DNA of 64,000 bases from Candidatus Dojkabacteria bacterium. Its GTDB lineage: Bacteria > Patescibacteriota > Dojkabacteria > J137. The notes below the pieces were generated by a model. The model worked only from the letters and a program-made list of their open reading frames with translations, searched no databases and was not told where the DNA came from. Shown here in pieces: positions 797 through 62,134 of this stretch. The position numbers were made by a program, and so were the translations under genes. The stretch lies in contig JBDTVZ010000001.1 in assembly GCA_040006935.1 (NCBI GenBank), positions 18,218 to 82,217 of the forward strand, written 5' to 3'. Each line of letters begins with the position of its first letter. The first letter of the stretch is position 1.

Positions 797-1204
797 TTAT
801 TTTGATTCTATTGTATCTAAAATAGTATTAACTAATTTATCAGCGAATTTATTTTGTTCTCTTGGAACGTGTTTAAATTCAATCTTTTTAAAGTTTTTCT
901 CTAAATATTTCACCTCTTTATGTTGTTCTTTAATTGAATCACTAGATACTTTATAAATCCCAGTAATTTGTTTGATAGCAAGTTCACTATCCATGCAGAC
1001 TAATAAATCATCGATACCATTTTTCACAGCTAGCTTTAATCCATTGATCAATCCTGAGTACTCTGCATTATTATTAGTTACTGTTCCTAAAAATTCACCT
1101 CCAAAATCGGATAATTTCCCTTCGGAGTCCAAAAGAAAGTAAGCACAAGCAGAATTTCCCGGATTACCTCTTGAGCCACCATCTGTAAATAGAGTAAACA
1201 TCAA
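797..1204 (-). CDS. rnhA: ribonuclease HI family protein
   Basis: 135 aa. LFTDGGSRGNPGNSACAY, NNNAEYSGLINGL, MDSELAIKQ and VPREQNKFADKL fit the RNase H fold acidic-residue pattern. Confidence 0.85.
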   Translation of the reverse strand: MMFTLFTDGGSRGNPGNSACAYFLLDSEGKLSDFGGEFLGTVTNNNAEYSGLINGLKLAVKNGIDDLLVCMDSELAIKQITGIYKVSSDSIKEQHKEVKYLEKNFKKIEFKHVPREQNKFADKLVNTILDTIESK

Positions 1205-1207
1205 AGC

Positions 1208-1293
1208 TAGTTAATAATTAATAGTTAAGAGTTAATAATTGAATAAACAGTGAATCTGGACTGTTTAACTATTAACTTTTAGCTCTTAACTAA
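1208..1293. repeat. AT-rich 'TAATAGTTAA'-type hairpin element
   Basis: Core hairpin AAACAGT(1245-1251)/ACTGTTT(1260-1266), flanked by imperfectly complementary arms rich in AATAGTTAAGAGTTAA / TTAACTATTAAC. The same motif family occurs at 12205-12225, 12595-12616 and 55277-55389. Confidence 0.5.
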
Positions 1294-1295
1294 AT

Positions 1296-1967
1296 TTATA
1301 CTTGTGACATAAAGTAGGATACATTTCTTACCCATTGATCTTGATTATCAGATGGGCCTCCATACTTTCTTATTATACAATACAAGTCACCTTTGCAGGG
1401 TGCAATAAATCTTTGGGAAATAACACACGACAGTTTTGTTAAAGATTGTGACCAACCAGTGTATTGAACACCATCTAAATATCCAAAAGGATTATAGATC
1501 TTATACGGAACTTTCCCCAATCCGGATTCGTTTCCGGCTATTCCTACAAGAATTTTATAGTCTCCACCGCATTCAACTGCTTTCCTCACCATTATTCCAC
1601 CATAACCTTTCATTGGCGAGTCATAGCTATTAAAAAGATTTTCAACTCGAGCAGTCCATTCCTCTATATCAGCTTCCTGTTTTGCTTCTGCTACACGTTT
1701 TGCTTTTGCTACTTTTGCTTCTTCTATCTTCTCCTGAGAGGCTAAATGTAGTGCATTTACTACATCAGCTTCTGTTATTTTGATAGTAAATCCCTTATTT
1801 AATGCATTTAAATCCCCAATCCAAATTCCGGAGAGAATAATTAAAACTATAGAAATAGTTACAAGAGAGGAAGCGATAATGTGAGAATCGTAATAATTTA
1901 CGAAGTTCTTGATTTGCTTTACTAATTTCTTTTTATTAAATTTAACTCTGAACTTTATTCTAGCCAT
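1296..1967 (-). CDS. membrane-anchored hypothetical protein, possible lysozyme-like (glucosaminidase/SLT-like) domain
   Basis: 223 aa with an N-terminal TM helix (IIASSLVTISIVLIILSGIWI). GIAGNESGLGK loosely resembles the ESGWG motif of glucosaminidase-type muramidases. The functional call is weak. Confidence 0.45.
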   Translation of the reverse strand: MARIKFRVKFNKKKLVKQIKNFVNYYDSHIIASSLVTISIVLIILSGIWIGDLNALNKGFTIKITEADVVNALHLASQEKIEEAKVAKAKRVAEAKQEADIEEWTARVENLFNSYDSPMKGYGGIMVRKAVECGGDYKILVGIAGNESGLGKVPYKIYNPFGYLDGVQYTGWSQSLTKLSCVISQRFIAPCKGDLYCIIRKYGGPSDNQDQWVRNVSYFMSQV

Positions 1968-2272
1968 TTCAGACTTCCTAATTTAACAATTAGTTCACGA
2001 TCGTCATCTGGAGCTATTATACAGTATGTGAGCTTATTACACTTCCCACACCTGTAAACTATTTGATTTCGACTATTCTTAACTCTAAGTCCAATCGGTT
2101 TTAGTAAACCTTTACAATCATTCGCTCTGTCTCCTGGATTAATATCAACGTGTTGGCTATATAAGCAAAAAATACAATGGTCTCTTGAGCTTGATGGATG
2201 GGCAGGTGTGACTTTCCCACAATTTAAGCAAGTAAAGGACTTGTTGTTCTTTTGAAATTTCTTTTGATCCAT
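1955..2272 (-). CDS. RNHCP domain-containing zinc-ribbon protein
   Basis: 105 aa. CLNCG...SSRDHCIFCLYSQHVDINPGDRANDCKG...CGKC matches the RNHCP-family pattern (RNHCP-like RDHC, HVD..PGDRA). Confidence 0.65.
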   Translation of the reverse strand: MDQKKFQKNNKSFTCLNCGKVTPAHPSSSRDHCIFCLYSQHVDINPGDRANDCKGLLKPIGLRVKNSRNQIVYRCGKCNKLTYCIIAPDDDRELIVKLGSLKWLE

Positions 2273-3616
2273 TTAAATTAAATATATAACTAAACCAGCC
2301 AAGGCAGATCCCATAAGTCCAAGTGTTAAATACTTAGCATATTTTCTTGTTCCAATTGTATAAGCATAAATGCTCTTGGCAACAAAATTAACAAAATTAG
2401 TCAGTAAAAAGGCAATCAGTGCAGTATTAACATCAATAACCCCATTTGTAAGTAATCCGGCAATTGCAATTGTGGGTGCATCTACTCCTATAACTCCCGA
2501 TAAAGCAGTAACTATAATTACAAAACCTGTATTAATATTTATTAATTGCATTGCTTGCACAACTAAACTAAGTACAACAATAATAGAAACAAATTTTAAA
2601 GCTGGTACAACTGAAAAAGCTTGATATTCGACAGTAATGCTTTTGGAAGATCCTCCTCCATATAAAAATATTAATAAACTACCAGTTACAAATCCAAAGA
2701 TTAGAACTACTAAAGTAACTGGAAATGCTGCAATGAATAAATCTTTATTAATTATCAATAGAAGAGTTGTTACAACCACAAAACTTACGGCATTTGAAAC
2801 AATTGCAGCTCCAGATAGAAGGATATCTTCTTTCTTAGTCTCTTTTGACTTTGAAGCGAAAGAAATAATTCCCGAGGTAGAAGAAATAAAACCAGAGAAA
2901 ATTGATGTGAAAAATAATCCTAATTTTTCTCCCGTAAGTCTACTTAAAATATAACCTAAGAGATTAATGCCAGAAATTATTACTACTATTACCCAAATCT
3001 GAAAAGGATTTCCTAAACTAAAATTTTGTAAAGCAGTACTACCAATATTAGTTACTCCAATAAGTGAAAAGAAATCTCCAAGCGTAAATACATGATCGGG
3101 GAAGACAGGTAGAATTACTAATGCAATTAATCCAAAACTAAAAACATCAATAACTTCACGGTGTTGAATTTTCTTAATAAATTTTCCAAAGCCTCTTTTC
3201 TGTGAAAGGAAAAAAGCCATTAAAACTAAAATAACCAACACAACTTCCAATTTTATTATTGAAGATGTTGTTAGAAATCCTAAAACGAAAGTAATTATTA
3301 CTGCGATTTCTGTTGTTATTCCAAAAGCTTCCTTCAATTTTACATTCATAAAGTAAGCTATTAGTAAAAATCCAGCTAATGCAAGAATTAGAAAAAAACT
3401 TAATATTTCTAAATGATTTACAAAAAGAATCCCAGCAATCCCACCCATCAACGATATTAAAGTATAAGTTCTAAATCCTCCAATTCTACTTTTCTCTTCT
3501 TTCTCTGCTTTTTCCACTCCATTTTCTTCAATTTCTCTAGTTTCGGTTTCCAGACCCAATATGGCACCAAATAGTACAGATAATAGAATCTTGGTAAAAA
3601 TATTAAGCTCAATCAT
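2273..3616 (-). CDS. MgtC/SapB family membrane protein with DUF4010-like C-terminal half
   Basis: 447-aa polytopic membrane ORF. The N-terminus LLSVLFGAILGLETETRE...GGFRTYTLISL fits the MgtC motif, followed by a long multi-TM extension. Confidence 0.7.
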   Translation of the reverse strand: MIELNIFTKILLSVLFGAILGLETETREIEENGVEKAEKEEKSRIGGFRTYTLISLMGGIAGILFVNHLEILSFFLILALAGFLLIAYFMNVKLKEAFGITTEIAVIITFVLGFLTTSSIIKLEVVLVILVLMAFFLSQKRGFGKFIKKIQHREVIDVFSFGLIALVILPVFPDHVFTLGDFFSLIGVTNIGSTALQNFSLGNPFQIWVIVVIISGINLLGYILSRLTGEKLGLFFTSIFSGFISSTSGIISFASKSKETKKEDILLSGAAIVSNAVSFVVVTTLLLIINKDLFIAAFPVTLVVLIFGFVTGSLLIFLYGGGSSKSITVEYQAFSVVPALKFVSIIVVLSLVVQAMQLININTGFVIIVTALSGVIGVDAPTIAIAGLLTNGVIDVNTALIAFLLTNFVNFVAKSIYAYTIGTRKYAKYLTLGLMGSALAGLVIYLI

Positions 3617-52200: not shown

Positions 52201-53220
52201 ATGGACAAAAATGAACAAAAAAATATCAAATATTTCCAGTTAGCTTCTATAATATTTAGTATTATCTTTTTCATATTAGTTTTTCAAGCAATTTACCCGC
52301 ACTACATATTTGGTGTTTGTGACTATACTCGGTGGTTGACAATTCCGATGGTTCTTTTTGCCATACTAAGTTTCTTAACATTTTTACCTAACTTTATTAT
52401 CCGATTTAAACAAAGATCACAAACTAAATTATTTTTAGTTAATCTAATCTTCATTTTGCTTACAGTTTCTATACTGTTTATTTCAATTTTAAGTAACCTT
52501 TGTGGTGGTTCTACAGGTATAACTGGAGCCACTGGTTTAAACGGGACAATTGGAGTATCAGGGAATATTGGTGGAACGGGTGAACAAGGAAAACCAGGAT
52601 CAACTGGATCAAAAGGGATTTCTGGGCAAACTGGTACCCAGGGTAACTCCGGTGAAGCAGGTGCAGTTGGAGCTGGTGGAACACCTGGATCTGTAGGATC
52701 TACTGGAAGCAATGGGATACCCGGAACAAACGGTTTAGTTGGAGGTTTAGGGTTACAAGGGCCACCAGGTCCACAGGGAGATCCAGGAGCTGCTGGTACT
52801 CCAGGAACAAGTGCTAATATTAACTATGGGTACATTTATAATACTGGTGCCCAATCAGTAGCAATTGATGCTCCTATTCTTTTCAGCTCGTCCGGACCAA
52901 TGGTTGGAGTCACACATACTGCTGGAACATCTACAATTACTATTACTAATGCTGGAGTATATTCAATTAATTTTTCAGTATCAGGGGCAGAAGCTAATCA
53001 ATTTACTGTATATATAAATGGCACACCATCTCCTACAACTACTTATGGCTCAGCAGCTGGTATCCAACAGAATAATGGACAAGCAATTCTTATACTCGGT
53101 GCTGGTGATGTTTTAACTGTTGTAAATCATTCTTCTGCAGCTGCTGTAACTCTTACAGCTCTAGTTGGAGGGACACAATCAACAGTAAGTGCTTCAGTAC
53201 TTATTAGACGATTAGATTAA
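52201..53220 (+). CDS. membrane-anchored collagen-like triple-helix repeat protein with BclA/C1q-like C-terminal domain
   Basis: Three N-terminal TM helices, ~34 uninterrupted G-X-Y triplets (52504..52810), then a beta-rich C-terminal domain (YIYNTGAQSVAIDAPILF...ITNAGVYSINFSVSG...VLTVVNHS). Confidence 0.8.
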   Translation: MDKNEQKNIKYFQLASIIFSIIFFILVFQAIYPHYIFGVCDYTRWLTIPMVLFAILSFLTFLPNFIIRFKQRSQTKLFLVNLIFILLTVSILFISILSNLCGGSTGITGATGLNGTIGVSGNIGGTGEQGKPGSTGSKGISGQTGTQGNSGEAGAVGAGGTPGSVGSTGSNGIPGTNGLVGGLGLQGPPGPQGDPGAAGTPGTSANINYGYIYNTGAQSVAIDAPILFSSSGPMVGVTHTAGTSTITITNAGVYSINFSVSGAEANQFTVYINGTPSPTTTYGSAAGIQQNNGQAILILGAGDVLTVVNHSSAAAVTLTALVGGTQSTVSASVLIRRLD

Positions 53221-54241: not shown

Positions 54242-54592
54242 TTAGTAAGTTAACATTTTATTAATCAATCCAGACAGCATCTTCCCTATTATAACTAATG
54301 AACTATAAATATTGCTATACTCGATTTCGTTTATTTTATCTTCGATCTTTAGAAGCTTTATTATTGCTACACATTCCTGCGTGGAACCACGAGCTATTAT
54401 ATAAAAGTTCTTCTTATCTTTACTACTATATTTACCAGCTCCCTCTGCAATATTTAACAAAATACTTGAAGACGCACGATATAACTGGTCTCTTAGGCTA
54501 TTATGTATCAATCTATTTTTTAGAAAAGGTTGTAGAGAAGTTATTAAGTCTTCAGTTTTCAAATACACAGGAAATTTTTCGAAATCAAACAT
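54242..54592 (-). CDS. four-helix-bundle protein (23S rRNA intervening-sequence protein family)
   Basis: MFDFEKFPVYLKTEDL...LRDQLYRASSSILLNIAEGAGKYSSKDKKNFYIIARGSTQECVAIIKL. Confidence 0.85.
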   Translation of the reverse strand: MFDFEKFPVYLKTEDLITSLQPFLKNRLIHNSLRDQLYRASSSILLNIAEGAGKYSSKDKKNFYIIARGSTQECVAIIKLLKIEDKINEIEYSNIYSSLVIIGKMLSGLINKMLTY

Positions 54593-54725: not shown

Positions 54726-54969
54726 AGCAGGTAGGGGGAATCGAACCCCCCTCATCAGTTTGCCTGCCCGCCTAAGGTAAAGTCAGGTTGCAATAAAGAA
54801 TGTGAATACAGCGGGTAGAGGGAATCGAACCCTCCTCTTCAGTTTGGAAAACTGACATAATAACCGATATACTATACCCGCTGTATTCACACTAATTATT
54901 TTTAATACCAGTTAAGTTTACTATGGCAGGCGGGGGAAACTGGCATAATAACCGATATACTATACCTGC
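54726..54969 (-). tRNA. tRNA-Gly(CCC) gene interrupted in the anticodon loop by a 172-nt insert (exon 1 54934..54969, exon 2 54726..54761)
   Basis: Joined halves give a 71-nt cloverleaf plus U73: GCAGGTA TA GTAT ATCGGTTA TTAT G CCAGT TTCCC|AA ACTGA TGAG GGGGG TTCGATT CCCCC TACCTGC T. All stems pair except C27.A43. Confidence 0.7.
54810..54881 (-). tRNA. tRNA-Gly(UCC), located inside the interruption of tRNA-Gly(CCC)
   Basis: GCGGGTA TA GTAT ATCGGTTA TTAT G TCAGT TTTCCAA ACTGA AGAG GAGGG TTCGATT CCCTC TACCCGC T. Clean cloverleaf with a 7-bp acceptor stem, U8, A14, GG in the D loop, U33 and a TTCGATT T loop; the D stem has a G10.U25 wobble and a U13/U22 mismatch. No encoded CCA. Confidence 0.95.
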
Positions 54970-54984
54970 ATTAATTACTCCACA

Positions 54985-55012: not shown

Positions 55013-55149
55013 GAATAACAATAATGGCTATGCTACTCATAAACCGACATTTTGAAAAGGCCGTGCCACCTCCTATTCAGTTTTCCGTCAAACTTTAGCG
55101 ACACATCGAATTATCGTTACCAGGTAAGCACTTAGATGTATTCTGATGA

Positions 55150-55178
55150 TTGACAAAAGTATATTTCTGTTATATAAT
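55150..55178 (+). promoter_or_regulatory. perfect consensus sigma70 promoter (TTGACA-17-TATAAT)
   Basis: TTGACA 55150-55155, exactly 17 nt of spacer, and TATAAT 55173-55178. Divergent from the tRNA promoter, ~530 nt upstream of the next ORF. Confidence 0.7.
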
Positions 55179-55276
55179 TAAATAGTTAAAAATCAATTAC
55201 AGATCGCGTGTTTACAAGACGGGATGGTCAAGGGAAAGTACGTGAGTCCCAAAACAACCACAAAACTCCCCAACCC

Positions 55277-55389
55277 TAGTTAATAGTTAAAAATTAATAG
55301 TTAAAAGAAGGAAATATCTTCTTGTTCAATTTCAATAAATGGTTATTAATAGTGCACTTAACTCTTCACTATTAAATCTTAACTATTTA
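55277..55389. repeat. 'TAATAGTTAA'-type inverted repeat pair forming a large hairpin with no ORF in the loop
   Basis: The left arm TAGTTAATAGTTAAAAATTAATAGTTAAAAG (55277-55307) pairs imperfectly with the right arm CTTAACTCTTCACTATTAAATCTTAACTATTTA (55357-55389). Confidence 0.5.
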
Positions 55390-55573
55390 TGGGCATTGAA
55401 CCATCTTATTTTCGTAAGAATTTAAGACTCATGCTTAATTCTACTTTATTGTAGAAGAACCTTAAAAACTCAAAAGAAGAAATTCTTTTGGGTTTCGTGA
55501 TTAACAATACACATGCTAACGCTGTGTGTTAATTGCAAAAACCCAATAGAAAGCTTAATAATTCGATTTAACT

Positions 55574-55641
55574 CTAGTTTACAACTGGACGCATATTGCC
55601 TATAAAATTTGTAGGTAATATGCGTATTCAGTTGTAACTAG
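55574..55641 (+). promoter_or_regulatory. long near-perfect hairpin in the leader of 55707..56696
   Basis: CTAGTTTACAACTGGACGCATATTGCCTA (55574-55602) pairs with TAGGTAATATGCGTATTCAGTTGTAACTAG (55612-55641), ~25 bp of pairing. Confidence 0.55.
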
Positions 55642-55706
55642 GGTGCACGTAGATGCAACTGAAGAAAGAAGTCCCGATACGCTAGGGCAATATAGGAGGG
55701 TCTTAA

Positions 55707-56696
55707 ATGACCGCAACTACAACAAGCCCTGTAACCCGGGCTTCCAATTCGGGTTGGTTCTGGATATATTTGATACTTTTTATGTTCGCTTGTATTGGTT
55801 TAAGCGGTCTCGCGCTACGATACACCAATGGCAACGGAGCAATCAAGAACAGTGCAGCAAGCGTAAGCTTGACAATGCAGCCACTGAACACTAACTACGG
55901 AGCCGGTGGTGTAAATGATTCACCAACGGCAACGCCTTATTGGCAACCTTCGACTATTTCGACGCAGACAGCAGTTCCAAACACATTGATTAACGACTCG
56001 ACATTCGGTTGGGTATATCAAAGTGATGTAACATGTATTCGCAATACATTTGAAGCAATGCATGTTACTCGCATCGTCAACATCGGACAGTCTGTCGGAA
56101 CTGACGGTTCGCCTTCACCAACCCTTGCTTTAATTGGCGTAATCAGCGAAGGCTCTTTTGTGTCTGAATTTGACAACACCAATGGACGGTCATTGACCTT
56201 TCGAGGTGGCGAGGAAGAACAAATCACTCCTACAAGTCCGACACAAATTATCCTCGTAATACTCAATCAAAATGTGGTCAATTTCGCAAATTTCTACTCA
56301 CAACCCTTGCAAGGGGTTGTTGCTGAAGGCGGAGTACCGCTGCTGTCTGTGGGTATAGAAATTAATCAAGGTCAAGGGAATGTTAGCGAAAATCTCTACT
56401 GGGGTAATTCTCTTATTGGTTACGTTAACGGACCTGTAACAATTGTACAGGATATTGGATCAGTATTCACCAACTACACTATGTCGGAGCTGGGCAATCA
56501 CTTGACTTTCAATGACTTTTCTCCTGATAACCTCAGAGGAATCGGTATACCTGTTGAAATGCTTGGAAATGACTGCTGGTCAATCAGCCTAGCTGTCACA
56601 GTCCCAACAAATCAAATACTCAGCTTTGGTGTGGGAACTTTTCAGTATCCACACTATACAGCTATCGCAGACTACCTGATGGTTCACAGCCAGTAA
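55707..56696 (+). CDS. N-terminally anchored extracytoplasmic hypothetical protein in a higher-GC island
   Basis: 329 aa. AGGAGG Shine-Dalgarno 8 nt upstream. TM anchor WFWIYLILFMFACIGLSGLAL. T/S/N/G-rich, beta-looking body. Composition is visibly more GC-rich than the neighbours. Confidence 0.7.
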   Translation: MTATTTSPVTRASNSGWFWIYLILFMFACIGLSGLALRYTNGNGAIKNSAASVSLTMQPLNTNYGAGGVNDSPTATPYWQPSTISTQTAVPNTLINDSTFGWVYQSDVTCIRNTFEAMHVTRIVNIGQSVGTDGSPSPTLALIGVISEGSFVSEFDNTNGRSLTFRGGEEEQITPTSPTQIILVILNQNVVNFANFYSQPLQGVVAEGGVPLLSVGIEINQGQGNVSENLYWGNSLIGYVNGPVTIVQDIGSVFTNYTMSELGNHLTFNDFSPDNLRGIGIPVEMLGNDCWSISLAVTVPTNQILSFGVGTFQYPHYTAIADYLMVHSQ

Positions 56697-56724
56697 ATCG
56701 CCATGTTAAGCTTCTATTGGCTCT

Positions 56725-56767
56725 TTGCCCCGACCCTCAAAAAGTCGGGGCAAATCCCTTTTTTTTC
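56725..56767 (+). terminator. Rho-independent terminator
   Basis: TTGCCCCGAC (56725-56734) / GTCGGGGCAA (56744-56753) followed by a T8 run. Confidence 0.85.
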
Positions 56768-56841: not shown

Positions 56842-58764
56842 ATGTTTAGATACAGAATACTAACAACTCTCATACAAATCGCAGTACTTTCTCTAATTCT
56901 TTTTTTAGGGTTTACTAATCCAAATTATTCTACAAATTACTTTATTATTGGCTACATTTGGCTAATCCTATTCACTTTCCCAAGCTTACTTTCTAAAATT
57001 ATTTTTAATAAGTCTTATTTTAGTTTAACTTCCGCACTTTGCTTTCTTTATTATCCAATTACTTATCTATTTGTATTTTTTGTAGCAAAGGTCTTTGCAA
57101 TTGATATAAATATATTAATACTTACATTGAGTATATTAGTAGTTCTACTTTGGAACCTTGCATTAATTAGTATTACTTTTACTCAAAAGGCTCATGAAAC
57201 CAGGCAAATAATCACGTTTGCACTTGGAGTACTAATTTTGAGTGTAACGTTATTTGGATTTTTAACAATTGCAGGTAGGTCTGTAAATTCAGTAGTAGCA
57301 AACGATTACCTTGTACACAAAACAGTTGTCTTCCCCATGGCTAATAGCGCAGAAACACTTTGCTTTCTACCAAGCCAGTGTTCAAATTTATTTCTATTAG
57401 ATTCCTATACAAGCTTTTACCATACTTTCATAATAATTCCTCTTGGAGGATTTAAATTTGATCCTATAATCTCAAGTTATATCTTAGACATTGTTTTTTC
57501 ATCTTTTATTATAATTTTAAGCTACATAACAGCCAGAAAGTTTGGCCTAAAAGTCAATTATGCAATTTTTGCAGGATTAATTTCACTAGTGGTTTTCGAT
57601 TCTGGAGCATTTACCGCCACAATATTCATTCCTCAAACTATGGCCTTTATGCTTACATTGTTTATTATTAACTCTCAAAAGCTAAATTTAAAATCACTCC
57701 TAATATCACTTATAGTGCTAATTCCAATACATTTTATAATGGGAATTTATTGTTTTGGAATTATGCTGCTTTACTATTTAATTGTAGAAAAAGAAATTTT
57801 AGAAAAATTTGAAATTAGAAAAAGATTACTAATAATACTGTCACTTTCAGCTACTTTATTAGTTTTATTGCTCAGTATTTCAGGCTTTGGAATAGAAAAG
57901 ATCTTTCAAGCAGAAGAAATTAAAAAACTTGGGTTTGCTACAAACTACTACTTTCCTGACAATTTAAAATTTCTATTCGAAATGGTCGGTTTAGGGAGTT
58001 TTATTTTTATAGCATGTCTTATTTATTACTATATCAAGGGAAAAGAAGATAAATATAATAATTTCCTAATAACAATAATTACTTGTGAACTGGTAGCATT
58101 TTTACTTGCACCAATATATGCAAATAAGTTTTTAATTGGCATTGGTGTATTTTTAGCAATTTTTATAATCAAAATTATTGCTAACCTAAAACAAAATGAA
58201 ATTAATAAATTATTTTATTGTTTTTATACCCTAATTTTAATCGCAATAAGTTTTGTTACACAATATAGATTCTTTCTTCTATTTTATACTCAGAGTAATG
58301 GTGAAACTTCGGCAATAGTTCAGAAAGACTTACCTATGGTTAACTTTGTAAAAAATAGCAAATTAAATTGCTTTTATGTTTCAGACCCACAAACACAACT
58401 CACAATCAGTGCTTTAGGCGATAAAATAACAGCAAGTGGGCACTATATGAGCTTAGACTCTCGAAGAGTATTATTTGAATTAATAAAATCTCCAAACGAT
58501 TTAAGGCTAAGTAAATTATATTCATTAGAAGAGTTCAAAGGAGTACGAACAGATATCTGCTTTGTTTACTCTGCAAGGTTAAAGGAATACGTAGCAAATG
58601 ATAACCAAAACTGGACGTTTAATATCTACAACTATATTGTAGATTATCAAAGAGAGATTGACCCAACAGACAATATTGAGAGGTATATGGTAAGTAAAAA
58701 TATCCACAGTGTCTACAATGACAAATACTATTCAATATACTTACTTCCTAAAAGTAGTAACTAA
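56842..58764 (+). CDS. large polytopic membrane protein (possible GT-C-type glycosyltransferase or polymerase-like)
   Basis: 640 aa with more than 12 predicted TM helices and a C-terminal soluble domain. Sits next to GT4/GT2/flippase genes. The functional call rests on context only. Confidence 0.5.
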   Translation: MFRYRILTTLIQIAVLSLILFLGFTNPNYSTNYFIIGYIWLILFTFPSLLSKIIFNKSYFSLTSALCFLYYPITYLFVFFVAKVFAIDINILILTLSILVVLLWNLALISITFTQKAHETRQIITFALGVLILSVTLFGFLTIAGRSVNSVVANDYLVHKTVVFPMANSAETLCFLPSQCSNLFLLDSYTSFYHTFIIIPLGGFKFDPIISSYILDIVFSSFIIILSYITARKFGLKVNYAIFAGLISLVVFDSGAFTATIFIPQTMAFMLTLFIINSQKLNLKSLLISLIVLIPIHFIMGIYCFGIMLLYYLIVEKEILEKFEIRKRLLIILSLSATLLVLLLSISGFGIEKIFQAEEIKKLGFATNYYFPDNLKFLFEMVGLGSFIFIACLIYYYIKGKEDKYNNFLITIITCELVAFLLAPIYANKFLIGIGVFLAIFIIKIIANLKQNEINKLFYCFYTLILIAISFVTQYRFFLLFYTQSNGETSAIVQKDLPMVNFVKNSKLNCFYVSDPQTQLTISALGDKITASGHYMSLDSRRVLFELIKSPNDLRLSKLYSLEEFKGVRTDICFVYSARLKEYVANDNQNWTFNIYNYIVDYQREIDPTDNIERYMVSKNIHSVYNDKYYSIYLLPKSSN

Positions 58765-59880
58765 CGTATAGTATTGCTCAAAGAGAACTTTATCTGAAAG
58801 CTTTTCAAAAGCCTTAGTCGAAACTTCTTGGTTTAATTTAAAGTTAGTTTTCTCACAAAGTTTAATTGCCTCAGAAACTTTATTAACTAAATCAACAATA
58901 TTTTTTCTTTCAAATACCAAATTATCAATTCCCAAAGTTTTAGCCATTTCAATATTACTTTCAGCATTAGAAAACACTCCTACATTGCCTAAAGCACTAG
59001 CTTCTTGATTAGCAAGAGAAAACCCCTCACTTAGTGAAGAATTGATGAAAATAGAGCTTGTAGAGAGCAAACTAAATACTTCCTCTTGCGGTAACAACCG
59101 ATTCTGAACTGATACATTGGAAGGGTAACTATAATCACCTGGTTTTATTTCAAAATCCCCTTTACCTATTAACTGAAACTTCCAATTTGGATATTTTGTA
59201 CTTAAAATTTCATATGCTTTTGCTACAGTTTCAGGATCCTTCACGATGGATATTCTAGATATGAAAGATATTGTTTTCTCTTTCTTTGTAATATCGTATT
59301 TACTGACTTTATCGCTATTAAAACCTGTATTTATCACAATAACTCTATCTTTAATCTTTGGATGAAGGTTAATTAATATGTTCTTAGTATATTCCGAAAT
59401 TGCAACGACAGCTTTTGCTTTAAATACTATGCTTCCAAATACAAATTTATCTAAAAAAGCCATCAATTTATTTGCACCTCCAGATTTGAAGATATTTGGC
59501 TGAAAACCACTATCAATATAGATGTAATTTATTCTCATTAATACACAAAGTACAAAAGCAATATAACTTGTAGTGAAATGCCTACCATTAATAATTACAA
59601 CTTTATTCTTAGTTTTAAGAAAAAACTTTAAAACAGTAAAAAAGAACTTTAAAGTTACAAATGGATATAACCCTCCAAAAAGCATCTTAGCCCTAATTGA
59701 CATTTTTAAAATCCCATTCTCTTGCCTGGTGTAATTTTCACTTGAACAAAAAATAGCAGTAGTTTTAATATGTGGCTTAGATACTAAAAAACTTAGTAAA
59801 TTATATGCAAAGGTTTCAACACCACCTACATGAGGAAGAAAAAGGTGGGAAATTGAGATTACATTTATTTCTTGTTCCAT
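58741..59880 (-). CDS. glycosyltransferase family 4
   Basis: PHVGGVETFAYNL N-terminus and C-terminal SLSEGFSLANQEASALGNVGV (the EX7E region of GT4). Confidence 0.8.
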   Translation of the reverse strand: MEQEINVISISHLFLPHVGGVETFAYNLLSFLVSKPHIKTTAIFCSSENYTRQENGILKMSIRAKMLFGGLYPFVTLKFFFTVLKFFLKTKNKVVIINGRHFTTSYIAFVLCVLMRINYIYIDSGFQPNIFKSGGANKLMAFLDKFVFGSIVFKAKAVVAISEYTKNILINLHPKIKDRVIVINTGFNSDKVSKYDITKKEKTISFISRISIVKDPETVAKAYEILSTKYPNWKFQLIGKGDFEIKPGDYSYPSNVSVQNRLLPQEEVFSLLSTSSIFINSSLSEGFSLANQEASALGNVGVFSNAESNIEMAKTLGIDNLVFERKNIVDLVNKVSEAIKLCEKTNFKLNQEVSTKAFEKLSDKVLFEQYYTLVTTFRK

Positions 59881-59913: not shown

Positions 59914-60612
59914 TTATGCCTTCAAAGATGCGAATCTATTAGAGATTAACCAGCCTAAGTGACTTAAACCAGTTTTTAGATATTGTTGTTTAGAGTTACC
60001 TTTAGATCTTCTGTTTTGTCTAATTGAATACTCACCCATTTTCAAATCTTTATTTTTTGCAACGTTAATTTTTATTTGAGGGCTTAAGTTCCAATCTCCT
60101 TGAGTTAAATTAAGTTGAGATTTAACCTCTTTTCTAATAAACCACATACCGGAGAGTATGTCGTTAAAGTACTTTCCATAAAGTATAAAGGCAGTGATAT
60201 TAAGCACATAAACTCCTAACTTTTGTATAGCACTAATTTTAGAACCTTTAGCTGGAGGAAGTCTATGGCAATACATAAAGTCGTACTTAGAATCTATAAA
60301 TTTATCCAACATTACGGTTAAATTATCTAACGGGTGTTCTGCATCTCCGTCTATAGAAAGAATTATATCTCCCGTAGCTTTTTCTATACCAGTCATATGG
60401 GCAAAACCATAACCTATTCCATTTAACTCTCTGTCATCTTTGAATGCTTTAAATCCAAGCGATAAGGCTTTCTCATAGGTATCATCTGTAGATCTATTGC
60501 TTACCACAATAATCTCATCTACAAAACTAGGTATAGAAGATTTAATCGTTTCCAGATTATTAGATTCATTCCTACAAGGAATATAGATTGTTACTTTGTT
60601 ATTTCTATACAT
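59914..60612 (-). CDS. glycosyltransferase family 2 (polyprenol-phosphate sugar transferase-like)
   Basis: VTIYIPCRNESNNL, IIVVSNRSTDDT, ILSIDGDAEHP (DxD-type motif). Confidence 0.8.
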   Translation of the reverse strand: MYRNNKVTIYIPCRNESNNLETIKSSIPSFVDEIIVVSNRSTDDTYEKALSLGFKAFKDDRELNGIGYGFAHMTGIEKATGDIILSIDGDAEHPLDNLTVMLDKFIDSKYDFMYCHRLPPAKGSKISAIQKLGVYVLNITAFILYGKYFNDILSGMWFIRKEVKSQLNLTQGDWNLSPQIKINVAKNKDLKMGEYSIRQNRRSKGNSKQQYLKTGLSHLGWLISNRFASLKA

Positions 60613-61109: not shown

Positions 61110-61388
61110 TTACTTTTTAAGTTTGTTCTTAATATATTTACCGTTTAGTATAAGTACTAAGCCCGCATTGAATGCTGCTCCAATAGCTATTACATCAAAT
61201 GCTCCTATCTGACCGGGATTATCATCTTGAAAAATAATACCAGTATTTGCGCATGTAGTAATACCATATGCTCCAACTGTACAAGTTTGACCACCAGCTG
61301 CTGAAACAGTATTTATATTACTAAATACAAATGTAAATAGGAACATTGATATTGCTACTATTATTAATTTTATTATATTTTTTGTCAT
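61110..61388 (-). CDS. small secreted protein with C-terminal hydrophobic segment plus basic tail (candidate sortase substrate)
   Basis: 92 aa. Signal peptide ending VSA|AGG, a two-Cys core (CTVGAYGITTC), then NPGQIG, AFDVIAIGAAFNAGLVLIL and KYIKNKLKK. Confidence 0.6.
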   Translation of the reverse strand: MTKNIIKLIIVAISMFLFTFVFSNINTVSAAGGQTCTVGAYGITTCANTGIIFQDDNPGQIGAFDVIAIGAAFNAGLVLILNGKYIKNKLKK

Positions 61389-61456
61389 ATTATTTTTATA
61401 TAAAACTATTGTTTTAATATATAAGCATTATACACTCAATATACCAATTTGTCAAG

Positions 61457-62134
61457 TTATCTAATCAAAGTGGCATAGACAATTATCCTTTCTGGTGAAT
61501 AATAATCTATACATGTGTACATTATTAAGTCTGCTAATTTTGAGACATGATTAGAAGTCTCAATTGCATTAACCTGATACCTATATTGTTTACCATTCCA
61601 ATTTATTGTGACTATTTCTCCACCTTTTAATTGATCGAATTCCGTGAATAAGTTGGCATTTCTCCAATCCCAAGATATGTTATTTTCACCCCATCTATGA
61701 GCTGCGAGAACAATAGGTAGCTCATTATTGTCTGGAGTACCATAATTCGGATCTCTCCAAACACCTGCAGCTAAAGCAGCCTCTTGGTTTGTAGATTCGT
61801 AGATTGTTGTATTTATTTTGATTCCGCTTACTTGTACAGTAGCACCTGTAGTAGTTACCGTATTCCCTACGACAAACTGTAATGGTTTTACCTTAGTTTC
61901 ATTAACAACTGTAGCTGTAAATGGATCTTTAAAGGTATATTTTGGAGTAGGTTTTACATCTGATTGTGCAAAAATAGCTGTTGATAGGATTTTATCTTCT
62001 TTTTGAGCCTCAAAAACATTAGTTTCAGCTTTAGGTGCAAAATTGATAAAAGACAAGAAAGCTATCGGGATTATCATCAGAATAATTCCGATCAAAATAT
62101 TTATATTGGCAAAGGTTTTTAGCACTTTTTTCAT
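61457..62134 (-). CDS. sortase family transpeptidase
   Basis: N-terminal TM anchor, LAAHRWG (His), LIMYTCIDY (TxxTC-type Cys), ERIIVYATL (Arg). Confidence 0.8.
   Translation of the reverse strand: MKKVLKTFANINILIGIILMIIPIAFLSFINFAPKAETNVFEAQKEDKILSTAIFAQSDVKPTPKYTFKDPFTATVVNETKVKPLQFVVGNTVTTTGATVQVSGIKINTTIYESTNQEAALAAGVWRDPNYGTPDNNELPIVLAAHRWGENNISWDWRNANLFTEFDQLKGGEIVTINWNGKQYRYQVNAIETSNHVSKLADLIMYTCIDYYSPERIIVYATLIR

Follow-up and report, generated by a model that had tools for sequence, protein, structure and literature searches.

A putative expression module with complementary untranslated regions for a hypervariable, G+C-rich candidate surface protein gene of Dojkabacteria

[quoted passage not shown] Pairing between the 3'UTR and the 5'UTR of one mRNA is also found in icaR of S. 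aureus, where it occludes the SD, prevents translation and leads to cleavage by RNase III (PMC3868564). Strong promoters and stable, long-lived mRNAs are described for S-layer genes and for other genes of major surface proteins (review PMC8056022). At the level of whole loci, divergent surface and glycosylation genes are exchanged at a fixed position via conserved flanks in the cell-wall island of Haloquadratum walsbyi (PMC4535781) and in O-antigen loci, which is thought to reduce phage predation.

The ORF at 55707..56696, hereafter gene X, encodes a protein of 329 amino acids (aa) that is 100% identical to the NCBI entry "hypothetical protein ABI721_00365", encoded on a contig of 516,739 bp; the whole 64-kb stretch analysed is called the window, and positions are counted within it. 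It was compared with 30 related loci, numbered L001-L030, among which L001/L002, L003, L004/L006, L029 and L030 form five X-bearing lineages besides that of the window, and the place that X takes in the locus is referred to as the slot. The reading that we favour, and hold with moderate confidence, is that the region is one transcription unit, a conserved and, as we infer, high-output expression module for X, a hypervariable membrane-anchored surface protein. By analogy with hbs, the X mRNA is probably stabilised by hairpins in its 5' part and by a clamp between its 5' and 3'UTRs. Such a module would give very high and stable expression of X, the hairpins and the clamp limiting the access of 5'-end-dependent and endonucleolytic RNases, as in hbs and the long-lived S-layer mRNAs.

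The signals that delimit the unit are as strong as had been described from the sequence alone. Its promoter (TTGACA-17-TATAAT, 55150..55178, +) is of the consensus sigma-70 type, matching at 12 of 12 positions, and is one of only two perfect sites of this kind in the window; transcription would be expected to start near 55185. L005 has exactly this -10 box and these first transcribed bases (TATAATTAAATAGTTAAA), and other modules from Dojkabacteria come close to them. An AGGAGG SD (55694..55699, +) stands 7 nt before the ATG and is the sole 5- or 6-mer SD core upstream of any of the 54 ORFs of the window, in which SDs are almost absent (any 4-mer core within 21 nt of the start: 3 of 54), and in the relatives GGAG(G) precedes every slot gene. 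At the other end, the intrinsic terminator (56724..56766, +) consists of an 11-bp G+C stem followed by U8 (-20 kcal/mol, z = -3.6).

Between the promoter and the gene lies a structured 5' untranslated leader of about 520 nt (55179..55706, +). Its fold, computed over 55185-55710, reaches -147.6 kcal/mol against -100.5 +/- 6.1 for dinucleotide shuffles (z = -7.8), and hairpins at 55325-55400, 55466-55536 and 55571-55644 are individually significant. The hairpins proposed in the sequence-only reading all proved to be real (55277-55389, 55487-55546 and 55571-55644), with z = -5.5 for the twin hairpins in the case of 55487-55546. A comparison of the 3' two-thirds of the leader could be made between the window, L029 and L030, the contigs of the latter two beginning within the leader, and the order of elements is the same in all three: hairpins A, B and C, a single-stranded linker starting AAACCCA, hairpin E and the SD. 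Hairpin A (UUCUAC/GUAGAA, 55439..55456, +) has the same stem in L029 and L030, with a larger loop there, and being invariant is uninformative as to covariation. Hairpins B (55467..55494, +) and C (55497..55536, +) are both conserved in L029/L030; three distal pairs of B are changed on both sides (A-U to G-C, G-C to U-A and A-U to U-A), and the outer stem of C has about four double changes (A-U to C-G, U-A to A-U, A-U to U-A and A-U to C-G) around an invariant inner ACACA/UGUGU stem, which by stem-by-stem comparison gives about seven double compensatory changes in the two hairpins with no pair broken. Hairpin E (55571..55644, +), a candidate 5' stabiliser, is a near-perfect hairpin of 33 bp (-43.9 kcal/mol, z = -11) that ends 63 nt before the ATG; a strong hairpin built differently, likewise starting CUAGUUU, takes its position in L029/L030.

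The single-stranded linker between hairpins C and E (55534..55571, +) has its complement in the 3'UTR, in the stretch that leads from the stop codon to the base of the terminator (56694..56729, +), and the two would form an interrupted duplex of 29 bp (-31.3 kcal/mol). Tested against the whole leader, this clamp has z = -3.5, with 1 of 200 shuffled 3'UTRs (mononucleotide shuffles) pairing equally well; in a restricted test z = -11.8. In L029/L030 the same linker position pairs with its own 3'UTR by means of a different sequence, ACCCACAAGUGAAACAAAAAUAGG with CCUACCCUUUUUGUUUCACUGUGGGU (-29 kcal/mol), and in the closest lineage, L004/L006, the core of the 3'UTR, TTAAGCTTCTATTGG, is conserved. 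A swap test was carried out on 11 independent modules, distant ones included, in which the last 300 nt of each leader were paired with the first 45 nt after each stop codon. The mean was -26.5 kcal/mol for cognate and -21.8 for non-cognate pairs, a cognate mean that none of 20,000 permutations reached (60 of 20,000 when 100 nt of 3'UTR were used), and the cognate pair of the window ranked first of the 11. At the level of sequence, then, the complementarity of leader linker and 3'UTR is shown to co-vary between lineages.

Set beside hbs, the X unit has in common the strong SD, the extensive structure of the 5'UTR and a long-range duplex of the 5'UTR with the 3'UTR, whereas its duplex comprises 29 bp instead of 14 bp and lies 136 nt upstream of the ATG within a leader of about 520 nt, and its product would be a surface protein rather than a nucleoid protein; a role for RNase Y or RNase J, and an effect on stability, would be assigned to it by analogy. 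With icaR it shares the pairing of 3'UTR and 5'UTR in the same mRNA, but the SD of X lies outside the duplex, so that protection or processing is a likelier function than repression. Points of likeness to S-layer genes and to 5' stem-loop stabilisers such as that of ompA are the consensus promoter, the stem-loops in the 5' part, the strength of both ribosome-binding site and terminator, and the adjoining glycosylation genes, and of the traits of S-layer-type genes an anchor or export signal, a strong promoter and a structured leader are all present. X differs from the S-layer proteins in having no sequence or domain similarity to them, only 329 aa and a single membrane anchor. The hypervariable surface islands resemble the X locus in their fixed position and in homologous recombination within conserved flanks; in the X locus, by contrast, the exchange affects a single coding region, whose own 5' and 3' untranslated regions serve as the conserved flanks; the cassette consistently exceeds its host in G+C (guanine plus cytosine), and the host is a CPR bacterium.

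The 329-aa protein (55707..56696, +) has the membrane anchor that had been predicted, a confident N-terminal transmembrane helix at residues 14-42, which the AlphaFold2 model places at residues 16-40 and follows with a disordered linker rich in T, S, N and G and a beta-sandwich body. This model, built on a six-sequence alignment, has a pLDDT (predicted local distance difference test) score of 71 overall and about 85 over residues 100-329; the single-sequence prediction reached only 36. Foldseek placed the body near beta-jelly-roll domains at E values of at least 0.04 and identities of 3-10%, with no binding-site residues that could be mapped, and its resemblance to CBM4, CBM61, MAM and the RetS sensor domain is at the level of the fold class only. 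X is a fast-evolving protein and has, as modelled, a membrane anchor and an extracytoplasmic beta-jelly-roll body. Its homologues bear signal or lipoprotein peptides, and the mature proteins are almost free of lysine: those of L001, L003, L029 and L030 have 0-2 lysines, all within the signal peptide, and X of the window has one in 329 residues against 7.6% genome-wide. Sequence searches of Pfam, NCBIfam, PHROGs and PDB gave no match for X, none of the known S-layer or anchoring domains (SLH, CWB2 and others) among them, and none for the other slot proteins. We infer that X is an abundant surface protein; it is possibly a glycan-binding protein or an adhesin, and might possibly be glycosylated by the products of neighbouring genes.

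The family of X is tiny: in 15 billion proteins it has about six relatives. When 5.8 billion proteins were searched by word index, X matched only itself; exhaustive scanning of 1.84 billion cluster representatives with HMMER brought out four genuine relatives (P0002 to P0005, E = 1e-20 to 9e-75), and a profile search gave one more (P0009). Scanning viral contigs with X yielded nothing, scanning genome contigs, in a collection without the source genome, matched a single distant locus, and the exact X sequence had no match in the contig index.

Downstream of X, and its syntenic partner in all lineages, is the gene for a 640-aa polytopic membrane protein (56842..58764, +), which was found in 25 related loci, is 64% identical in L006 and 37-41% in L001, L003 and L029, and has no match in Pfam, NCBIfam or PDB. 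It is followed by a family 4 glycosyltransferase (GT4, assigned by Pfam; 58741..59880, -) and a polyprenyl-phosphate-sugar-synthase-like family 2 glycosyltransferase (GT2, assigned by Pfam and, as AglJ-like, by NCBIfam; 59914..60612, -), both with orthologues in L001 and L029, and the window neighbourhood includes a Wzx-like flippase and a sortase as well. The X homologue of L001/L002 and that of L003 each precede a 631-aa protein 37% identical to that of 56842..58764, which in L001/L002 is followed by an opposite-strand GT4 (42% identical to 58741..59880); L003 ends at that point in a partial opposite-strand gene. In L004/L006, X and the membrane protein are 46% and 64% identical to those of the window. 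The order in L029 is X, a 105-aa gene, GT4 (-), a 630-aa protein (+), GT2 (-), two small genes with a flippase-like gene, sortase (-) and MutS. The neighbourhood common to the X homologues is that of the 640-aa protein and the GT4, to which the longer loci, L001 and L029, add the GT2 and the sortase. X and its 640-aa neighbour are related to the window in the same order (46%/64% in L004/L006, 42%/41% in L029 and 34%/37% in L001). Taken together, the GT2, the GT4, the flippase and the 640-aa protein suggest, from the gene content, envelope glycosylation, and with the sortase they make up the conserved Dojkabacteria cell-envelope locus in which X sits. In L001 a 1408-aa transglutaminase-core protein is encoded just upstream of the X homologue on the other strand.

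Within this conserved setting the coding region of X has been exchanged. Between L029 and L030 the leader (positions 51-248 of L029) and the downstream gene are 92-98% identical, whereas the coding regions of X are about 50% identical in nucleotides and 37% in protein, with the last 80 nt of the gene conserved again; X of L029 is in fact nearer to X of the window (42%) than to that of L030 (37%). As read from these sequences, X alleles are replaced by recombination inside a conserved locus, a pattern resembling that of cell-surface islands such as the one in Haloquadratum walsbyi (PMC4535781). A diversity-generating retroelement was also looked for: the window contains no repeat of the X coding region, and a simple motif scan, as distinct from a profile search, found no [YF]xDD motif in ORFs of at least 200 aa. 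On the minus strand at 54242..54592 a PF05635 '23S rRNA intervening-sequence protein' stands alone, accompanied in the window by no template repeat and, in this motif scan, by no reverse transcriptase; we take PF05635 to be the family of the Avd proteins of diversity-generating retroelements.

X was said to be visibly richer in G+C than its surroundings, and this is borne out: X has 44.5% where the window has 32.2%, and no other 990 bp of the 64 kb are as G+C-rich (z = 4.35). The G+C content at third codon positions (GC3) is 0.409 compared with 0.225 +/- 0.034 in the 53 other ORFs (z = 5.4, first of 54), C- and G-ending codons are both raised, and arginine and leucine are encoded by CGN and by CTC, CTG or TTG instead of the AGA and TTA of the genome. 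The amino-acid make-up contributes to the excess (second-position G+C, GC2, has z = 2.35); as its sole cause it was ruled out by the GC3 score, the rise of both C and G at third positions and the use of CGN and CTS codons. In every lineage X exceeds the G+C of its own genome, by about 12 to 28 points: 49.7% in L004 against 26-27% for its neighbours and contig, 57.7% in L001 against 42.7%, 57.5% in L003 against 44%, 61.8% in L029 (GC3 70.5%) against 31-35%, 57.8% in L030 against 33-34%, and the 44.5% of the window against 32%. With X proteins 32-46% identical, synonymous sites are saturated, and the composition of a donor cannot therefore have been passively retained across the lineages.

The excess is not confined to X. 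Through the 640-aa protein, 20 more distant Dojkabacteria loci were found that lack X, 12 of which extend far enough upstream to show the slot gene. At these 12 it encodes a membrane- or lipid-anchored protein of 136-211 aa with 40.5-48% G+C in genomes of about 27-39%, and lies after a sortase gene, the gene of a 75-aa protein with a PEDTG motif and a gap of about 300 nt. The slot proteins belong to at least three families, none related to X, and their genes share with X the layout of promoter, long leader, GGAG(G) and terminator. Since unrelated slot genes are G+C-rich too, the excess belongs to whatever gene fills the slot. In L016, two G+C-rich slot genes stand in tandem (929..1474 and 1871..2458), both preceded by a promoter and leader of their own, and the expression module can thus be duplicated. 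The 75-aa protein, encoded after the sortase gene and upstream of the slot gene in L007-L028, would have a mature part of only about 20 residues, with (I/V)PE(D/E)TG at its end before a hydrophobic tail, and is, judged by its sequence, a putative sortase substrate of very small size that recurs in Dojkabacteria loci as a conserved element.

High expression was considered as a cause of the high G+C and rejected on the composition of the gene behind the only other perfect TTGACA-17-TATAAT site (61427-61455, -), which drives 61110..61388, encoding a small secreted or anchored protein of 92 aa beside the sortase gene 61457..62134, with 30% G+C and a GC3 of 0.14. The second G+C-richest stretch of the window, 52201..53220, encodes a membrane-anchored collagen-repeat protein with a BclA C-terminal domain (PF01391, PF18573) and owes its rank solely to glycine and proline codons (GC2 0.50, GC3 0.18). 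The G+C excess of X is real; the most economical hypothesis for it would be that a recombination hot spot has undergone GC-biased gene conversion (Lassalle et al. 2015, PMC4450053).

Several further features of the leader were noted. A C/A-rich segment of 84 nt with a higher G+C content (55198..55281, +) lies between 17-nt direct repeats, AATAGTTAAAAATYAAT (55181-55197 and 55282-55298, matching at 16 of 17 positions), and is possibly an insertion with a target duplication; no other copy exists in the window or the related loci. The GC-rich segment 55190-55275 that had been listed for the leader in the sequence-only reading is indeed G+C-richer, at 45%, but folds no better than shuffled sequence (z = 0.2). 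Pairing of the 84-nt segment with the SD, a candidate that was rejected, appeared in one minimum-free-energy structure only, was lost in the ensemble that included the early coding region, and deletion of the segment had no effect. The A+T-rich palindromic TAATAGTTAA-type element (55277..55389, +), with arms 79-85% complementary, is built of TA(A/G)TTAA heptads and has a second copy at 1208-1292; a blastn and pattern search of the window found exact copies at these two intergenic sites only. It may be a repeat resembling a repetitive extragenic palindrome or a miniature inverted-repeat transposable element, or a bidirectional hairpin. As an enriched operator motif it was discarded, its one-mismatch count being at chance (26 observed, 24 expected) and exact copies alone clustering. 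The idea that the leader is a decayed upstream gene, considered in view of the 226-aa gene that precedes X in L001, was likewise dropped when neither tblastn nor blastx gave a signal. The two independent assemblies L029 and L030 break, at their position 1, within 27 nt of each other inside the leader, which suggests that its upstream part is repeated in these genomes or hypervariable in the population.

The leaders of the distant relatives share a conserved core of their own, absent from Rfam and placed about 130 nt after the slot-gene promoter, which was seen in L005, L007-L011, L013, L015, L016 (two copies), L018, L019 and L026. It consists of CUGCUCUUUAAAA, about 40 nt, a 16-bp hairpin (AUAAAAGAnACAUU...AAUGUCUCUUUUAU) with a U-tract, and then GUUCUUUAAAA; many A-U/G-U exchanges and a UA/AU swap (five sequences against five) back the hairpin, and in its sequence the core looks like an attenuator.

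Upstream of the unit, on the minus strand, lies a tRNA locus of unusual form. From 54969 to 54726 (-) the predicted fold is that of one cloverleaf set inside another (-99.3 kcal/mol, z = -6.7), with a complete tRNA-Gly(UCC) at 54882->54809 (-) carried by an insert of 172 nt that interrupts the anticodon loop of an outer, otherwise intact tRNA. When ...CCAGTTTCCC and AAACTGATG... are joined in silico, the outer tRNA that results has 72 nt and is called by ARAGORN as tRNA-Gly(CCC). The outer and inner acceptor stems differ by one compensatory pair (A3-U70 and G3-C70 respectively), the inner one is extended by ten-bp inverted repeats, and the locus has its own promoter, TTGAAA-16-TGnTATAAT (55012->54985, -). 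Rfam detected no group I intron in the insert. A literature search found no precedent for a tRNA nested within a tRNA, and a survey of tRNA introns in Patescibacteria reports neither tRNA-Gly nor nested genes (PMC13011429). If the nested tRNA is processed into two functional tRNAs, it would represent, for Bacteria, a new type of disrupted tRNA gene. An 18-nt sequence at 55069-55086, between the two divergent promoters, resembles the anticodon-stem/variable/T-stem part of tRNA-Gly (78% to both) and may be the relic of a further tRNA copy.

The position of X beside this locus lay behind the proposal that it is a recent single-gene island, integrated next to or into the tRNA-Gly locus and still carrying the G+C-richer composition of its donor. 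Much of what brings tRNA-targeted integrative islands to mind is there: the unit adjoins a tRNA gene, the contrast in G+C and codon usage is real, tRNA-half repeats and the third tRNA-like sequence at 55069-55086 are nearby, and X alleles do move horizontally. Yet the comparison of synteny refuted a recent acquisition, homologues of X being found in the same neighbourhood in five other lineages, and no tRNA was found at any of the 30 related loci, so that the gene keeps its place in relatives that have no tRNA there. No integrase is present among the flanking ORFs (a 23S rRNA intervening-sequence protein, a NUDIX protein, an unknown protein, the 640-aa membrane protein, GT4, GT2, sortase and flippase), as had been stated from the start. 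The statement that there are no att-like tRNA-fragment repeats has to be amended, as repeats do exist at 54726-54762 and 54934-54978 (D1/D2); they lie on the tRNA side only, form the nested tRNA and are not att sites flanking X, and blastn with the tRNA locus found no tRNA-derived repeat beyond the terminator at 56767 (best match 14 nt, E = 0.29). With saturated synonymous sites, moreover, a donor composition could not have persisted in all lineages. What survives of the suggested horizontal acquisition is the exchange of alleles, seen in X proteins 37% identical within 92-98% identical flanks in L029 and L030; the tRNA-linked single-gene island does not, and we regard it as highly improbable. 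In practice, "High G+C next to a tRNA" is insufficient for calling an island.

The remaining alternatives concern what the leader and the repeats do. The leader might be a sensing switch (a riboswitch, a thermosensor, or a protein-dependent or leader-peptide attenuator) rather than a constitutive stabiliser, an explanation that we consider unlikely, though it has some merit: the leader has a long, conserved structure, the SD is linked with codons 2-5 by a small local helix, and the distant core, a conserved hairpin with a U-tract flanked by repeated CUCUUUAAAA motifs that allow alternative pairings, is attenuator-like. That core is not detectable in the window, however, no long-range structure hides the SD in the ensemble, and the leader has no credible small ORF with an SD. 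Nor does it match any Rfam 15 family even at E <= 10 (best leader matches at E 1.3-10, far below the gathering score, with only the tRNA reaching threshold), and the leaders of the related loci have no Rfam match either; the riboswitch, thermosensor or small RNA that the sequence-only reading had envisaged in the leader found no positive support there. If, instead, the promoter drove an independent small RNA from about 55185 to about 55400, and X were transcribed from a separate weaker promoter, the hairpin at 55325-55400 with the U-rich stretch after it, the 84-nt segment with its look of a separate insert, and a weak promoter-like site at 55533-55562 (9 of 12 positions) would fall into place; but the same layout of promoter, long leader and SD precedes every slot gene in the relatives with no strong promoter between, the 84-nt segment has neither significant structure nor another copy, and the weak site lies in the linker, where the sequence of L029/L030 differs, and so is not kept as a promoter. 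We give this little credence, and no more to the idea that the linker and the 3'UTR act as inverted repeats in the DNA, as recombination sites around an exchangeable or invertible cassette. Such repeats would bracket the part swapped between L029 and L030, would suit a slot filled by unrelated genes in other lineages, and are mostly of Watson-Crick pairs; against this, no recombinase or integrase occurs in the window neighbourhood or the related loci, the repeats are imperfect (29 of 36), G-U pairs are present in some modules, for example L010, and the breakpoints lie off the repeats, as L029 and L030 begin to diverge some 100 nt downstream of the linker and are conserved again over the final 80 nt of the coding region.

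A single transcription unit expressing X at high level has its own weak points, which should be weighed with these. The complementarity of leader and 3'UTR is equally that of an inverted DNA repeat around the coding region, and only occasional G-U pairs favour RNA. The module has been read from sequence, with the expression level, transcription start, read-through of the leader and mRNA half-life all being predictions. High expression alone cannot explain the G+C excess, given that 61110..61388 has 30% G+C despite its perfect consensus promoter. The 5' part of the leader (55185-55430) has no comparator, L029 and L030 breaking there, and the covariation in hairpins B and C, counted stem by stem, comes from two independent lineages and was scored weakly by MAFFT/RNAalifold, which underestimates it because of a one-base register error in the alignment. 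Finally, an nhmmer profile of the distant leader core does not match the leader of the window; what is claimed is accordingly a common layout, of the promoter and start region and of the whole arrangement, and not homology of sequence throughout the leader.

Beyond the single unit, a wider interpretation may be put forward tentatively, as one that could well prove wrong: that Dojkabacteria possess an 'expression socket', made up of consensus promoter, long structured leader, strong SD (where the genome otherwise lacks SDs) and clamping 3'UTR, which receives unrelated surface-protein cassettes by recombination and whose occupants are pushed towards, or selected for, a G+C content that exceeds that of the genome by 10-28 points. 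For the single unit, the rapid turnover of X would reflect pressure from hosts or phages, and its G+C excess would come from frequent recombination with GC-biased gene conversion or from selection acting on the mRNA; for the socket, the cause could be such conversion at a recombination hot spot, or selection favouring an mRNA that resists RNases.

CPR/Patescibacteria spend their lives attached to host cells, and to our knowledge almost nothing is known of what their surface displays or of how they control this. X is a candidate for a major, variable and so far unannotated surface protein of these bacteria. The combination of a structured leader with a 5'/3'UTR clamp is known from a few genes of model organisms, and here it appears conserved and co-varying across a whole class. 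The anomaly in composition, persistent and unexplained by recent transfer, offers a test case for GC-biased gene conversion as against selection on mRNA in bacteria. If the socket interpretation is true, it would represent a natural case of local recombination visibly reshaping bacterial base composition, and a means, so far undescribed, by which ultra-small episymbiotic bacteria vary their surface and over-express it.

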